Source: an uncultured Gammaproteobacteria bacterium (GTDB lineage: Bacteria > Pseudomonadota > Gammaproteobacteria > UBA9214). From it: a DNA stretch of 64,000 nucleotides. Below are positions 28,998-49,734 of this stretch, piece by piece (within the stretch, counting starts at the first letter, position 1; the number at the start of each line of letters is the position of its first letter). The notes under the pieces are model-generated. The model was not told the origin of the DNA and made no database searches. It saw only the letters and a program-made list of their open reading frames with translations. A program made the position numbers and the translations under genes. The stretch is taken from positions 219,699 to 283,698 of the forward strand of contig CAVVHS010000002.1 of the NCBI GenBank assembly GCA_963748215.1. The letters run 5' to 3'.

Positions 28998-29071
28998 GTT
29001 TTAATCGTGCCATGCTTTTGAAAAAATATCTCGCGCAAAGCCGCCAAGGGGTTAAGAAAATTAAAAAACCG

Positions 29072-29104
29072 CCTCGCGCAGAGACGCAGAGTTCGCAGCG
29101 GAAA
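29072..29104 (+). repeat. CGCAGAG-type repeat arm without the 48-bp insert
   Basis: CCTCGCGCAGAGACGCAGAGTTCGCAGCGGAAA; its reverse complement matches 29200-29280 at 32/33 once the insert is removed. Confidence 0.9.
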
Positions 29105-29199
29105 TCTATTGCTGCCGGTGAAACGAGGAAGTAATTCAAGGCGGAATGTAACAAGCACGCATACCGGTACTGTATAACATCAATCCCGTTTGAATCGGT

Positions 29200-29280
29200 T
29201 TTCCTCTGCGAACTCTGCGTCTCTCGGCAACTGCTCCTTGCGTTGCCCTACCTCCTACATCCCTGTAGTCGTGCGCGAGG
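29200..29280 (-). repeat. Repeat arm copy A, with 48-bp insert at 29225-29272
   Basis: Near-identical to copies at 44756, 45337 and 49658. Confidence 0.95.
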
Positions 29281-36836: not shown

Positions 36837-36875
36837 TTGCCACAGAGAACGCGCAGCACACAGAGGGCACAGAGA
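36837..36875 (+). repeat. 9-bp-period CACAGAG repeat arm
   Basis: Units CACAGAG, CGCGCAG, CACAGAG, CACAGAG start at 36841, 36850, 36859 and 36868. Confidence 0.6.
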
Positions 36876-43119: not shown

Positions 43120-43992
43120 ATGGAAGATAAACCGGACATTCCTGTGCTTATCGTGGGTTGCGGCTATATCGGCCGACGCGTGGCAACGCTGCTCGGGAAG
43201 CGTGGCCGGGCCGTGACCGGGCTGGTCTGCAGCGCGGCGAGTGCCGGCGATCTGGCCGGCATCGGCATCGAGACGCTGCGGAGCGATCTCGACCGGGACC
43301 CGGTTCCACCGCTTGCCGGCTTCCGGGATATCTTCTATTTCGCGCCGCCGCCAGGTGACGGCGACAGGGACACGCGCATGACGCACGTGCTGGCCGCGCT
43401 CGGGGCGCCGCGCCGCATCGTCTACATCAGCACCAGTGCAGTGTACGGTGACTGTGGTGGTGCCTGGATCGACGAGGATCAGCCGGTGAACCCGACCAAC
43501 GCGCGCGGCCGGCGCCGCCTGGATGCGGAACGGCAGCTGTCGACATGGGCGCAGGCACATGGCGTGCAGTGGATCATCCTGCGCGTGCCTGGCATCTACG
43601 GGCCGGGCAAGCTGCCGCTGGTGCGTCTGCGCCAGGGTCTGCCGGTGCTGCGCGAGGAGGAGGCGCCGTACACCAACCGTATCCACGGCGACGACCTCGC
43701 TGCCATCTGTGTTGCAGCCATGGATTCGGACAAGGCGGACACCGTCTACAACGTCAGCGACGGCCATCCGGGCAACATGACAGACTACTTCTTCCGCGTT
43801 GCCGATGCCGCCGGCCTGCCGCGTCCGCCGGTGGTGGCGCGTGATGAGGCCGACGCCGTGCTGAGCGCGGGCATGCTGTCGTTCATGAATGACTCGCGGC
43901 GCATGCGTAACGACCGCTTGCTGGGCGCACTCGGCATCGAGCTGCAATACCCCGACCTGGAGTCGGGGCTGAAGTCCTGTTTCAGAGGCTGA
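43120..43992 (+). CDS. Atypical SDR / NAD-dependent epimerase (YeeZ-like)
   Basis: GCGYIG, ISTSAVYGD, GIYGPG, NRIH motifs. Confidence 0.9.
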   Translation: MEDKPDIPVLIVGCGYIGRRVATLLGKRGRAVTGLVCSAASAGDLAGIGIETLRSDLDRDPVPPLAGFRDIFYFAPPPGDGDRDTRMTHVLAALGAPRRIVYISTSAVYGDCGGAWIDEDQPVNPTNARGRRRLDAERQLSTWAQAHGVQWIILRVPGIYGPGKLPLVRLRQGLPVLREEEAPYTNRIHGDDLAAICVAAMDSDKADTVYNVSDGHPGNMTDYFFRVADAAGLPRPPVVARDEADAVLSAGMLSFMNDSRRMRNDRLLGALGIELQYPDLESGLKSCFRG

Positions 43993-44749
43993 ACTCGGCC
44001 ACCACCGGCGCGTGGTCCGACGGCCGCTCCATTCGGCGCGGTTCCCTGTCGATACTGCAGGCCGTGCATTTCCCGGCCAGCGCCTGGCTGGCCAGAATCA
44101 AGTCGATGCGCAGGCCCATGTTGCGCCGGAACGCCGCGGCGCGATAATCCCACCAGCTGAAGCTGCCTTCTTCCTGCTCGAAGCGGCGGAACACGTCGCT
44201 TAAACCCAGCTCGATGATCTTCTGCAGCGCCTGCCGTTCCGGCGTGCTGCACAGGATGCGTTCGCGCCATGCCTCGGGATCGTGCACGTCGCGGTCTTCA
44301 GGTGCGATGTTGAAATCACCCAGCGTGACGAATTGCCGGTGCGACTTCAGCTGCTCGCGGATATAGTCCGCCACCTTGCCCAGCCAGTGCAGCTTGTAGT
44401 CATATTTCACGCTGCCGACTTCCTGGCCGTTGACCACGTACAGGTTGAGGACGCGGATACCATCGATGGTGGCACCGAGGATGCGTCGTTGCGGGTCATC
44501 GAGGCCGGGGATGTCGGTGATGACATCGCTGGCCTCGGTCTTGCTGATGATGGCGACGCCATTGTAGGTTTTCTGTCCCGAGTAGACGACGTGATACCCG
44601 GCCGCGCGGATAGCATCGGCCGGAAAGTTTTCGTCGGTGAGCTTGGTCTCCTGCAGGCACAGCACATCAGGTTCGGCGGCGTTGAGCCAGTCGAGTATAT
44701 GCGGCAGGCGGACCTTGAGGGAGTTGACGTTCCAGGTGGCGATTTTCAT
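43982..44749 (-). CDS. xth: Exodeoxyribonuclease III
   Basis: ATWNVNS, LQETK, GDFNIAP, WWDYR, SDHAP motifs. Confidence 0.96.
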   Translation of the reverse strand: MKIATWNVNSLKVRLPHILDWLNAAEPDVLCLQETKLTDENFPADAIRAAGYHVVYSGQKTYNGVAIISKTEASDVITDIPGLDDPQRRILGATIDGIRVLNLYVVNGQEVGSVKYDYKLHWLGKVADYIREQLKSHRQFVTLGDFNIAPEDRDVHDPEAWRERILCSTPERQALQKIIELGLSDVFRRFEQEEGSFSWWDYRAAAFRRNMGLRIDLILASQALAGKCTACSIDREPRRMERPSDHAPVVAEFSL

Positions 44750-44755
44750 TGTTTT

Positions 44756-44843
44756 CCTCGCGCACGACTACAGGGATGTTGGAGGTAGGGCAACGCAAGG
44801 AGCAGTTGCCGAGAGACGCAGAGGTACGCAGAGATACGCAGAA
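44756..44843 (+). repeat. Repeat arm copy B, with 48-bp insert at 44764-44811 (one substitution)
   Basis: CCTCGCGC[48 bp]AGAGACGCAGAGGTACGCAGAGATACGCAGA. Confidence 0.95.
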
Positions 44844-44859
44844 TAAATAAGGTCATTGC

Positions 44860-45240
44860 CTATAATCCGTTTACCATTCTGGTGATGCCGTTCTTGACCA
44901 GATCGGTGTTGAAGTTTATCAGAAGGCCCAGTTTGTAGCCCGAAAGCTTCAGGTATGTCAGTAGCTGCTTTTTGTGGACGTTCGTGATTGTGTCGACTGC
45001 TTTCAGCTCGACGATCACCCTGTTTCCTACCAGCAGGTCAACCCTGAACGCATCCGGTATCATGAGACCTTTGTAAGACACGGCCAGCGTGGCCTGCCTT
45101 GCTATGACAAGCTTTCGCTGTCTGGTCTCATAGACCAGCGCCTCTTCGTAAACAGACTCCAGCAATCCCGGTCCAAGCGCGGAATGTATTTCGTGTATGG
45201 CGTCGACGATTGCTCCGGACAGCTTGTTTTCAATCATCAT
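44860..45240 (-). CDS. GxxExxY protein (PD-(D/E)xK nuclease fold)
   Basis: LGPGLLESVYEEAL, FRVDLLV, IVELK, QLLTYLK, GLLINF motifs; about 126 aa. Confidence 0.93.
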   Translation of the reverse strand: MMIENKLSGAIVDAIHEIHSALGPGLLESVYEEALVYETRQRKLVIARQATLAVSYKGLMIPDAFRVDLLVGNRVIVELKAVDTITNVHKKQLLTYLKLSGYKLGLLINFNTDLVKNGITRMVNGL

Positions 45241-45336
45241 GGCAAGAAATTTGGATGACCAAAGGGGTGCATCCATACTTCCGCCTGATTGAAGAACTAT
45301 CTGTCAGAACATGCAGTTTCTACCAGTAATATATTT

Positions 45337-45424
45337 TCTCTGCGCCTCTTTGCGTACTCTGCGTCTCTCGGCAACTGCTCCTTGCGTTGCCCTACCTCCT
45401 ACATCCCTGTAGTCGTGCGCGAGG
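45337..45424 (-). repeat. Repeat arm copy C, with 48-bp insert at 45369-45416
   Basis: Insert identical to copies A and D; ends 8 bp from the prlC stop. Confidence 0.95.
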
Positions 45425-45432
45425 CCGCGAGG

Positions 45433-47469
45433 TCAGGCCGCCAGTCCGGAGTGTCGCAGCAAAGCGTCGATGGTCGGTTCGCGGCCGCGGAACTCGACGA
45501 ACAGTTCCATCGGTTCGCGCGAGCCACCCTGTTCGAGGATGCTGCGCAGGAACTTCTCGCCGGTTTCGCGGTTGAAGATGCCGCTTTCCTCGAAGGCGGA
45601 GAAGGCGTCCGCTGACAGTACCTCGGCCCACTTGTAGCTGTAGTAGCCCGCGGCATAGCCGCCGCCGAAGACGTGGGTAAAGCTGTTCTCGAAGCGGTTG
45701 AACTCGGGCGGCTGCATGACCGCGACGTTCCTGCGCACCTGTTCCAGGGTCTGGCGGATGCGCGCACCCTTCTTCGGGTCGTAGTCGCGGTGTATGTGAA
45801 AGTCGAACAGCGCGAACTCGAGCTGGCGCAGCATCTGCATGGCTGACTGGTAGTTCTTCGCGCGCTGCATGCGTTCGTAGAGGTCGGCAGGGATCTTCTC
45901 GCCGCTTTTATAGTGTCCCGAGATCAGGTCCAGCGCATCGCGCTCCCAGCACCAGTTTTCCATGAACTGGCTGGGCAGCTCTACCGCATCCCAGGCCACG
46001 CCGCTGATGCCGGAGACGCCGGGGTAGTCGATCTGCGTCAGCATGTGGTGCAGGCCGTGGCCGAACTCGTGGAACAGTGTGATGACTTCCTCGTGGGTGA
46101 ACAGCGCCGGTTCGTCGCCGATGGGGGGTGAGAAGTTGCAGGTCAGGTAGGCGACCGGTGTCTGTACGCCGCTGGCCGTACCGCGCCGGCTGATACATTC
46201 GTCCATCCAGGCGCCGCCGCGCTTGTTCGGGCGGGCATACAGGTCGAGGAAGAACTCGCCGCGTACCGTGCCATGTGCGTCCCTGATGCGGTAGAAGTCG
46301 ACTGACTCGTGCCAGGTGTCCACGCCGTCCACCGCCTCGATCTGCAGGCCGTACAGGTAGCCGACAATTGCGAACAGCCCTTCCACCACGCGTGGCTCGG
46401 GGAACCATGGCTTCAGTTCTTCCTGCGAGATGGCGTACTTCTGCTGGCGCAGTTTTTCGGAGTAGTACGGGATGTCCCAGGCCTGCACATCGTCGTGGCC
46501 ATGCTCATGGGCGTACTGGTGCACCGCTTCCAGCTCCTGTTCTGCCGCCGGCCTGGAGCGCTTTGCCAGGTCTTCGAGAAAGCCGATAACCTGGTCGGTG
46601 GAGTCCGCCATCTTGGTGGCCAGCGAGCGTTCCGCGTAATTGGTGTACCCGAGCAGGCGCGCAGCTTCGTGGCGCAGACCCATGATCTTTTCCATGGTCG
46701 CACCGTTGTCGTACAGGCCCGCGGTGGGACCGAGTTCGGAGGCGCGCGTGACATAGGCGGTGTAAAGCTCCTTGCGCAGCTCGCGGTCATCGGCGTAGGT
46801 CATCACCGGGTAGTAGGACGGGAACTCCAGGGTGAACACCCAGCCGTCCTGGTCGCGCTGCAGCGCGGTCTGCTGTGCCAGCGCACGTGCACTTTCCGGC
46901 AGGCCGGCGAGCTGTGCTTCGCTGGTGATGTGCTTGTGCCAGGCGTTGGTCGCGTCCAGCACGTTGTCGCTGTATTTCGAGGCCAGCCTGGAGAGTTCCT
47001 GCATGATTTCCTTGAAACGGTCGCGCTTGGCCGCGTCGAGCTCGATGCCTGACAGGCGGAAATCGCGCAGGGCGTTGTCGATGACCTTCTTCTGCGCGGT
47101 GTCGAAGCGCCGGTATTCGTCGCCGTCGGCAATCTGCCGAAAGGCCTGGTACAGGCCCTCGTGCTGGCCGAGTTCGGTACCGTATTCGCTCAGCAGCGGC
47201 AGGCACTCGTTGTACACGTTGCGCAGTGCCTCCGTGTTGACGACCGCGTTCATGTGGCTGACCGGCGACCAGGTGCGGTTGATGCGGTCGTCCATTTCAT
47301 CCAGCGGTTCCACCAGGTTGTCCCAGGTGTAGGTCGTGTTTGCGGCAAGCAGCTGCTCGACGAGTGCACGGCCCTCGGTGAGCAGCCCGGTGATGGCGGG
47401 TTTCACGTGTTCCGGCCTGATCTCGGAAAAGTGCGGCAGGCCGTCGGTGATCAACAGGGGGTTGGACAT
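45433..47469 (-). CDS. prlC: Oligopeptidase A (M3 family)
   Basis: HEFGHGLH, VELPSQFMENW, GYYSYKWAE motifs. Confidence 0.97.
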   Translation of the reverse strand: MSNPLLITDGLPHFSEIRPEHVKPAITGLLTEGRALVEQLLAANTTYTWDNLVEPLDEMDDRINRTWSPVSHMNAVVNTEALRNVYNECLPLLSEYGTELGQHEGLYQAFRQIADGDEYRRFDTAQKKVIDNALRDFRLSGIELDAAKRDRFKEIMQELSRLASKYSDNVLDATNAWHKHITSEAQLAGLPESARALAQQTALQRDQDGWVFTLEFPSYYPVMTYADDRELRKELYTAYVTRASELGPTAGLYDNGATMEKIMGLRHEAARLLGYTNYAERSLATKMADSTDQVIGFLEDLAKRSRPAAEQELEAVHQYAHEHGHDDVQAWDIPYYSEKLRQQKYAISQEELKPWFPEPRVVEGLFAIVGYLYGLQIEAVDGVDTWHESVDFYRIRDAHGTVRGEFFLDLYARPNKRGGAWMDECISRRGTASGVQTPVAYLTCNFSPPIGDEPALFTHEEVITLFHEFGHGLHHMLTQIDYPGVSGISGVAWDAVELPSQFMENWCWERDALDLISGHYKSGEKIPADLYERMQRAKNYQSAMQMLRQLEFALFDFHIHRDYDPKKGARIRQTLEQVRRNVAVMQPPEFNRFENSFTHVFGGGYAAGYYSYKWAEVLSADAFSAFEESGIFNRETGEKFLRSILEQGGSREPMELFVEFRGREPTIDALLRHSGLAA

Positions 47470-49577: not shown

Positions 49578-49657
49578 GCCGGTGCTTTACCAATGAATAT
49601 TCAGTCTTGCATTACGGATACAAGCCACGGTCTGTGCCACGCGATTTGACAGTGTGT

Positions 49658-49734
49658 CTCTGCGAGCTCTGCGCCTCTCGGCAACTGCTCCTTGCGTTGC
49701 CCTACCTCCTACATCCCTGTAGTCGTGTGCGAGG
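49658..49734 (-). repeat. Repeat arm copy D, with 48-bp insert at 49679-49726
   Basis: CTCTGCGAGCTCTGCGCCTCT[48 bp]GTGCGAGG. Confidence 0.95.

Follow-up and report, generated by a model that had tools for sequence, protein, structure and literature searches.

A candidate selfish cassette of a GxxExxY nuclease gene and inverted arrays of a phased 7-nt word at the prlC-xth junction

The subject of this study is a 669-bp insert (44756-45424, minus strand) in a 64,000-nt stretch of gammaproteobacterial DNA, referred to here as the window, from a genome of 3.52 Mb in nine contigs (G000). The insert fills the spacer from the prlC stop to the xth start and holds one gene, for a GxxExxY protein with a PD-(D/E)XK nuclease signature, between two inverted arrays of a phased 7-nt word. 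We give an even chance to the reading that it is a copy of a widespread selfish cassette, made up of the gene and the two arrays, which would move as a unit and decay into hairpins. Comparison of congeneric genomes showed that arms and gene come and go as one unit at this junction of co-directional genes, that a cassette can be replaced by one of another protein clade with another word, and that gene-less hairpins with the same arms are what remains of decayed or emptied cassettes at orthologous sites. A survey of homologous loci also showed the pairing of a PF13366 gene with phased inverted arrays to be general.

The insert and its gene

The longest open reading frame (ORF) of the gene spans 44860-45276 on the minus strand; alignment with relatives points to an ATG common to them as the likely start, giving a gene at 44860-45237 and a protein of 125 amino acids (aa). 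The ORF matched PF13366 (PDDEXK_3) with an E value of 2.3e-39 and 134.8 bits (cut-off 22) and TIGR04256 (GxxExxY) with an E value of 3.4e-41 and 140.2 bits (cut-off 35). It was the only PF13366 match in the 3.52-Mb genome, in which PF05635, a family considered below, had no match. The initial annotation of this DNA had described a unit of about 670 bp between prlC and xth with one GxxExxY ORF of lower G+C content, lying alone inside inverted repeats, and all of these statements were confirmed, the gene having a G+C fraction of 0.505 compared with 0.617 for xth and 0.63 for prlC. By this measure the gene looks foreign. The same annotation had noted that the protein keeps D...ELK and QxxxY. In all 14 intact proteins of the genus, including that of the window, the catalytic positions D67, E77-x-K79 and Q91..Y95 were invariant, as were G22, G24, E27, Y30 and E31 of the GxGxLExxYE motif.

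The closest characterised relatives were weak Cas4-type profile matches (Cas4b, E 5e-4 to 8e-3; phrog_1706, E 7e-3), and apart from these PADLOC and PHROGs gave no indication of a defence or phage role. A search of the PDB by sequence found no meaningful match to the protein (best E 0.44). A confident model is available in the ESM Atlas (predicted TM-score, pTM, 0.89), and the structural neighbours listed there all belong to PF13366.

Turnover of the cassette among congeners

The prlC-xth junction was located blind, by DNA search, in 15 congeners, and five further occupied junctions were added by gene search, which is biased towards occupied sites, to give 20. A search for empty sites in relatives had been proposed in the initial annotation, and four of the 15 blind junctions proved to be empty. 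In these the two genes are separated by -1 to 21 nt, and G003 has the overlapping stop and start TAATG. Three others held different short repeats (113-150 nt) and eight held a PF13366 cassette, the spacers of these measuring 480-705 nt. With the five biased junctions included, 13 of 20 were occupied.

Two protein clades were found at this site. Clade A, with CGCAGAG or CGCAAAG arms, was present in G000, G002, G012, G037, G039 and G047 and, in broken form, in G008 and G018. Clade B, with CACAGAG arms and proteins 38-46% identical to that of the window, was present in G004, G006, G007, G016 and G034. In a tree of xth and the end of prlC, a clade of 12 genomes (support 96/94) was occupied throughout, with clades A and B interleaved, and parsimony, counted by hand, required at least four switches between A and B. 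The sister genomes G047 and G034 (support 100/99) carried a clade A cassette with CGCAAAG arms and a clade B cassette with CACAGAG arms, respectively. The identity of their flanks was 92-95% in each 100-nt step and extended to 2 nt beyond the prlC stop on one side and to base 2 of the xth start codon on the other, with a synonymous divergence (dS) of 0.24-0.34, and the cassettes between these borders could not be aligned. Genomes sharing clade B had a flank dS of 0.75-0.98 and a cassette dS of 2.6 or at saturation. The interleaving, the swap between sisters and the mismatch in dS together show that the whole intergenic cassette has been exchanged faster than the host genes diverged. Contigs of run X8 joined the xth start to prlC positions with unknown letters between; these may represent other organisms' alleles, either empty or differently filled, and were not used.

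Only three of the eight clade A copies at prlC-xth were intact (G000, G012 and G039). The G002 copy had lost D67 and carried K79Q (ELQ for ELK), the G037 and G047 copies were frameshifted, and the G008 and G018 copies were broken, so that five of the eight were damaged. An extra copy in G018, at the ribF-ileS junction, had its catalytic E changed to A. The dN/dS ratios (nonsynonymous to synonymous) of intact copies were 0.06-0.19 in the four pairs with measurable dS, and by these ratios the intact copies are constrained.

A second junction, gmd-fcl, was occupied by clade C cassettes with CACGGAA arms in G003, G006, G008, G017 and G045. It was empty in G018 (32 nt, no array) and held an unrelated 132 nt in G002. 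In G046 and G007 it held gene-less hairpins with the same CACGGAA arms around cores of 200-290 nt, without a trace of the gene. In G042 (locus L153) the CACGGAA arms enclosed about 1.5 kb of other small ORFs together with a 3' remnant of the clade C gene beside the right arm (tblastn E 2e-11; hidden Markov model (HMM) E 1.5e-6). This interior indicates that the cargo between the arms can change. The series supports a path from gene-bearing cassette through remnant to gene-less hairpin. The small ORFs of the G042 interior (78-115 aa) formed two pairs, and a word array lay among the enclosed sequence as well. G000 offered no gmd-fcl junction for comparison, as it has only distant paralogues of gmd and fcl.

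Structure of the arms and a nested 48-nt module

The outer arms (44756-44823 and 45357-45424) are 68 nt long, 99% complementary and 533 nt apart, and form the sole inverted repeat reported within 44500-45700. Less well matched phased words extend both arms inward; those of the left arm reach about 44846 and those of the right arm start at 45337. The core of the arm is the 7-nt word CGCAGAG, repeated with a period of 8-10 nt. The xth-side arm (44756-44850, plus strand) starts with CCTCGCGC and has an A-rich inner end. Its first word is split (CGC at 44761-44763, AGAG at 44812-44815) and is followed by CGCAGAG at 44817-44823 and 44827-44833 and by CGCAGAA at 44837-44843. The prlC-side arm (45337-45424, plus strand) consists of CTCTGCG (45338-45344), CTTTGCG (45348-45354) and CTCTGCG (45357-45363), a mirrored copy of the splitting sequence (45369-45416) and the terminal GCGCGAGG (45417-45424). 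The inner words of the two arms thus differ in spacing and in one word.

The sequence that splits the first word (44764-44811, plus strand) is a 48-nt module of two small hairpins (CTACA..TGTAG and GGCAAC..GTTGCC). Word arrays elsewhere in the genome typically begin with YCTCGCGCAGAGACGCAGAG, and in the cassette arms this start is broken after CCTCGCGC by the 48 nt. Metagenome contigs from two runs joined 44763 directly to 44812 and so skipped the module, both arms of the G002 cassette lacked it, and in G037, the nearest relative, it was found in the prlC-side arm only. These cases, together with a gene-less hairpin at 29072-29280 that has the module in one arm only, show it to be separate from the arms. 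About 30 copies were counted in the genome, roughly half of them beside word arrays. In several arrays (44764-44811, 45369-45416, 29226-29273 and within 49654-49734) the module always lay between CGC and AGAG of the first CGCAGAG word, and its presence varied between close strains. Judged by its sequence and position, the module resembles a very small, independent element that inserts site-specifically. This young second mini-element, which lies within the first word of both arms, accounts for the 99% match of the outer 68 nt; in these comparisons it is the word array, and not the near-perfect outer arms, that forms the cassette's older signature. The inverted arms of about 85 bp described in the initial annotation therefore exist, but each is a composite of CCTCGCGC, the 48-nt module and then words, and not one repeat.

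Gene-less copies and other repeats in the genome

A BLAST search with the arm, a check that the initial annotation had recommended, gave 33 matches on eight of the nine contigs, and a pattern of two phased words gave 61 matches, far above the six of a reversed control. The pattern (two CRCARAG words 8-11 nt apart) was scanned genome-wide. The 61 matches in G000 formed 39 arrays, 22 of which made up 11 inward-facing pairs 70-550 nt apart. One of the 11 pairs contained the gene and the other ten were gene-less hairpins. When these 11 elements were compared all against all by BLAST, the arms alone matched and the cores were unrelated.

The two gene-less copies of the arm reported earlier in the window, near 29072/29200 and 49658, were recovered as a hairpin and a solo arm. 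The hairpin (29072-29280) has a left arm without the module (29072-29101), a right arm with it (29204-29280) and a unique core of about 100 nt. The solo arm (49654-49734, minus strand) consists of words and module and has no partner within 80 nt. All three copies in the window sit between co-directional minus-strand genes. Among congeners, the hairpin was present in G037 at 95% identity and absent from G008, which has a 49-nt spacer, and G002 had other content at the site. Capture of a host spacer between two arms was considered as its origin and rejected on the evidence of a single case, G008, whose short spacer lacks the core. Additional solo arrays were observed in the window at 29030-29049 (CGCAAAG/CGCCAAG, just left of the hairpin) and at 36859-36874 (CACAGAGGGCACAGAG). 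At a locus of another congener (L020, on contig C10 of G017), three near-identical gene-less hairpins of about 105 nt stood head to tail upstream of a clade A' gene, forming a tandem array.

The most frequent phased word of the genome was a different one. When 7-mers repeated at a distance of 8-11 nt were counted de novo, CACGGAA came first with 365, followed by its frame-shifted forms CCACGGA (94) and ACACGGA (76). Of the independent phased words, CGCAGAG came next (21), and CACAGAG (13) followed several GC-rich 7-mers with counts of 14-20. The CACGGAA arrays are those that form the arms of clade C cassettes in other congeners. In G000 they numbered 218, were mostly solo and mosaic with other repeats, and had no cognate gene. 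They typically take the form GGCCACGGAATCCACGGAAGAACACGGAAAAAT, for example at C4:35102-35127 and C5:31123-31149, and the mosaics also include other palindromic repeats and GACGTGA runs.

The initial annotation had named another enzyme, such as a REP-associated tyrosine transposase (RAYT; REP, repetitive extragenic palindrome), as one that the repeats might follow. Five matches to the Y1 family (PF01797) were found in G000, and these RAYT-like genes carry different flanking repeats: none was flanked by word arrays or by the 48-nt module. A short Y1 gene (C2:111830-112333) had arrays of the palindrome GTAGGAGCGGATCCCATCCGCGA on both sides and appears, from this arrangement, to be an ordinary REP/RAYT system existing beside the word arrays. 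The longer Y1 genes on C9 were flanked by GGGGACAGACCACGTTTT.

Homologues in other phyla and the pairing of word and protein

A homologue search with the genus alignment yielded 80 loci from many phyla, 78 of which had enough flanking sequence. For each, the best inverted match between the 200-nt flanks was compared with the 95th percentile of the values around neighbouring ORFs. Flanking inverted arrays were detected at 63 of the 78 homologues and at five of 150 neighbour-gene controls. The arms of homologues were runs of an 8-nt unit, mostly RCGCARAG, the word step being 8 nt in 77 of 105 cases, and the CGCARAG word was kept across phyla. The topology of the 63 armed loci was like that of the window in 49, opposite in 12 and ambiguous in two. 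Some homologous genes stood between complete gene-less hairpins.

Within the genus, four protein clades were associated with four word types. In a phylogeny of 92 proteins, 26 changes of word class were counted, compared with 31-37 in 500 shuffles, and the coarse split into CGC and CAC words changed seven times, compared with at least ten in shuffles. Both the enrichment of inverted arms around homologues and the covariation of repeat word and protein, which the initial annotation had put forward as checks, were thus observed.

Repeat number and presence of the gene

Repeat numbers were compared among 37 congeners, 17 with a PF13366 gene (one to three matches each) and 20 without. The statistics ignore kinship and raw medians are given; a tree of 21 genomes shows about three independent contrasts of gene presence. 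The median number of CRCARAG matches was 76 with the gene and 4.5 without it (p 4e-4 ignoring kinship), which is weak evidence of an association. Exceptions were G035 (170) and G009 (146), both incomplete genomes without the gene, and G007 (2) and G045 (6), which have it. The highest number, 328, was found in G018, yet none of its copies combines an intact frame with the catalytic E. At least 31 CACAGAG matches were counted in four of the five clade B genomes (31-167) and in six of the 32 others. CACGGAA arrays were present in 36 of the 37 congeners and the clade C gene in only five, and the medians with and without that gene (77 and 46.5, p 0.36) showed no relation. G042, 95% complete in about ten contigs, had 157 CACGGAA matches and no PF13366 match.

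The same layout around an unrelated protein family

PF05635 was surveyed in 201 genomes of the class, was present in 42 of them, and was read at 29 loci (L119-L148; L123, from an unpublished genome, was left out). Arms passing the same threshold were found at 24 of the 29 loci. They too were phased 7-8-nt units, with other words, and each locus had a word of its own, for example GGGAGTA, GGCAGTT or GAGTTCT. No rRNA was found at the 20 of these loci that were scanned for it.

Whether the arms are conserved as paired stems or as words was judged from their mismatches, which comprised 59 of G.U type, 60 of A.C type and 117 transversions and hence showed no wobble bias. Spacers and word numbers differed between the arms of one element. 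Both observations indicate that the constraint is on the word and not on the stem. Four RNA runs contained only small shares and gave no usable coverage; one of them (X17) yielded 11 short contigs, most of which lay on prlC or the repeated module, and nothing was concluded from them on transcription or processing.

Interpretation and alternatives

If the insert is a selfish cassette, its protein would bind the arrays flanking the gene, each word taking one subunit, and would cut the DNA at the words, whereupon host repair would copy or exchange the cassette at such junctions. Selection at cassette level would maintain the intact gene. Of the gene-less hairpins and solo arrays with CGCAGAG or CACAGAG words, most would be leftovers of earlier insertions, and not copies made in trans. 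The protein probably reads its words and cuts there, which would drive gain or exchange of the cassette. More tentatively, and with clearly less confidence than for the insert itself, cassettes of this phased-word type may represent a class of mobile DNA in bacteria that has not been described. Such a class would consist of a small nucleic-acid-binding protein (the GxxExxY nuclease and, independently, PF05635) bracketed by inverted cognate arrays of 7-8-nt words; reading of the words would drive site-specific insertion or exchange at operon junctions, and the leftover arrays would be a major source of REP-like intergenic repeats in many phyla.

Several observations weigh against the selfish cassette. 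No target-site duplication or common target motif was seen on comparison of filled and empty sites, the flanks of which have diverged, and the swaps could also be due to recombination between conspecific alleles or to an ancestral tandem pair. Neither tblastn nor an HMM of the genus proteins detected a gene remnant in the ten gene-less cores of G000, and some of the frameshifts counted as decay may be errors of draft assemblies. The covariation of word and protein does not prove recognition, as arms and gene travel together and linkage alone predicts it. PF05635 forms a four-helix bundle without a nuclease fold, so that the layout as such needs no nuclease. In the 12 of 63 loci with opposite topology the gene lies outside the word-to-A-rich direction, unlike in a simple terminal-repeat transposon. 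The CACGGAA arrays, finally, are numerous and well kept without a PF13366 gene, which in these genomes simple decay explains poorly. Their abundance and the opposite topology are explained well by none of the four readings, that is, the selfish cassette and the three alternatives that follow.

It might be that the word arrays are older, independent repeats and that the nuclease gene parasitises them by homing into pre-existing hairpins or arrays, the protein recognising its word array and the arms being the remains of this target. The abundance of arrays without a gene (CACGGAA in 36 of 37 genomes), the near-constant position of the gene within arrays (63 of 78 loci), the fact that the word follows the clade, as target specificity predicts, and the occurrence of both arm topologies are all in keeping with this, as is the gmd-fcl site, which is occupied in some genomes by a gene-less hairpin and in others by a gene-bearing cassette with the same arms. 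However, none of the 20 prlC-xth junctions held a gene-less phased hairpin, the alternatives there being empty sites or other repeats; G000 has a single copy of the gene despite ten cognate gene-less hairpins; G042 shows the direction from gene to remnant; and empty sites without any array were found (gmd-fcl in G018, prlC-xth in G003 and G014). We regard homing into older hairpins or arrays as unlikely. A very low probability is given to an effect at the RNA level like that of 23S rRNA intervening sequences, in which the arms would pair in the operon transcript, RNase III would cut the stem and the insert would be tolerated, the job of the protein being unrelated to the arms. The cassette is indeed co-oriented with prlC and xth and without a promoter-like or terminator-like site of its own, its arm end supplies a GAGG before the xth ATG, and PF05635, which takes its name from 23S rRNA intervening sequences, has the same layout in 24 of 29 loci. 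Against it stand the mismatches, unbiased for wobble (59 and 60) and with transversions as many as transitions, the unequal spacing and word number in the arms of one element, and the conservation of CGCARAG across phyla where a mere stem could drift. The site is moreover not in rRNA, and neither are the 20 scanned PF05635 loci.

The initial annotation had supposed that the GxxExxY protein recognises or cuts the repeats and spreads them. In its RAYT-like form, this would mean that the host keeps a single-copy enzyme which copies gene-less arrays and hairpins in trans, the dispersed repeats being a replicating population. The numbers give this some support: there is one gene per clade and genome (one to three PF13366 matches in 17 of 37 congeners), gene-less arrays far outnumber it (39 CRCARAG arrays with 11 inward pairs in G000), CRCARAG is more common where the gene is present (median 76 against 4.5), high CACAGAG counts occur in four of five clade B genomes against six of 32 others, and the Y1 genes of G000 carry other repeats. 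The spread of gene-less repeats by the enzyme nevertheless agrees badly with the CACGGAA word, which does not follow the clade C gene (77 and 46.5, p 0.36; 36 of 37 genomes and five), and with G018, where 328 matches coexist with no copy of intact frame and catalytic E. Gene-less hairpins have common arms and not common cores, the gene is swapped and decaying and not stably inherited, and gene-less hairpins at orthologous sites look like decay products of gene-bearing cassettes. The genomes are kin, with about three independent contrasts, and the same type of arm surrounds 24 of 29 unrelated PF05635 genes. Taken together, the association of CRCARAG with the gene is weak and the spreading itself was not supported; we think it improbable that the repeats are such a population.

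Relation to known systems and significance

The initial annotation was built on a likeness to REP/RAYT systems, and this likeness is real: a single gene stands between inverted repeats, copies of which occur elsewhere without it. These systems also have a lone enzyme gene within inverted short intergenic repeats that are more numerous without the gene, lie between genes and are of a type specific to the enzyme lineage (PMC5581495, PMC8266576, 10.1101/2021.07.10.451892). The present enzyme differs in being a PD-(D/E)XK protein (PF13366) and not a Y1 HUH protein (PF01797), and the repeat is an array of phased 7-nt words and not a single palindrome. The cassette gene is also swapped and decaying, one word class is abundant without the gene, and separate Y1 genes with REPs of their own are present. 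The gene-less hairpins of the cassette match in their arms only and not over their whole length, unlike REP doublets forming hairpins (REPINs), the gene-less copies of which are alike beyond the arms.

Free-standing homing endonuclease genes pass through a cycle of gain, decay and loss, and I-Ssp6803I is an example with a PD-(D/E)XK fold. The cassette resembles them in having a nuclease gene that some genomes carry and others lack at one precise, sharply bordered site, that often decays, and that gives way there to a different lineage. Homing endonuclease genes are not known, however, to require word arrays on their flanks or to leave behind dispersed repeats without the gene. A small ORF within an inverted repeat, in a transcribed unit and without its own promoter, is also found in 23S rRNA intervening sequences with an S23p/PF05635 ORF, such as that of Coxiella, and is regarded as selfish (PMC4990558). 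The cassette differs from these in lying between protein genes, in its ORF family and in showing no sign of selection for RNA pairing. The weak profile matches to Cas4/RecB-type proteins cover the D..ExK..QxxxY core, but the present protein has only about 125 aa, has no context of clustered regularly interspaced short palindromic repeats (CRISPR) and matches far below family level. As to insertion sequences and miniature inverted-repeat transposable elements, the diverged flanks of filled sites show no visible target-site duplication, and the only gene of the cassette is of PF13366, which to our knowledge is not a transposase family. The arms, being complementary across the gene, are also unlike the single attC of an integron cassette.

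No published description of the pairing of GxxExxY/PF13366 with phased arms was found in a literature search that did not extend to subscription journals and supplements. Word strings such as CGCAAAGGCGCAAAG led to unrelated papers only, and GxxExxY was named in one text, in the part of it that was accessible, merely as a neighbouring gene. The function of the PF13366 family is given as unknown in a table of the PD-(D/E)XK superfamily. PF13366/TIGR04256 is a large family of no known function, and the short phased intergenic repeats of many bacteria lack an explanation. If the cassette reading is true, it would give a role to both. It would also add a nuclease-based counterpart to the REP/RAYT and homing endonuclease systems, explain recurrent presence/absence variation at operon junctions, and offer pairs of word and protein that can be tested at the bench. 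The genus is a good test bed, as prlC-xth is found among close relatives in an empty state, with a clade A or clade B cassette, or with a decayed one, and gmd-fcl shows the path from cassette to hairpin. With the same architecture around the unrelated PF05635, the question extends beyond a single enzyme to a principle of design.

Flanking genes and minor features

The upstream host gene, prlC (oligopeptidase A; 45433-47469, minus strand), and the downstream host gene, xth (exodeoxyribonuclease III; 43982-44749, minus strand), were both identified as ORFs with orthologues in congeners, those of xth being 74-96% identical. The names follow the initial annotation and the appearance of the proteins and are presumably correct. 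Between the prlC-side arm and the start codon of the cassette gene lies a leader of about 100 nt (45238-45336, minus strand), which is conserved with G002 and G037. A consensus scan of 44600-45600 found no sigma-70-like promoter or terminator, and no Rfam family matched across the whole window. On the strand of xth, the outer arm end (44750-44763) reads GCGCGAGGAAAACAATG and places GAGG 6 nt before the xth ATG. A similar xth-side arm end was observed in G037 (GAGGAAAACAATG) and G002 (GAGGAGAAAAATG), and not in every other congener.

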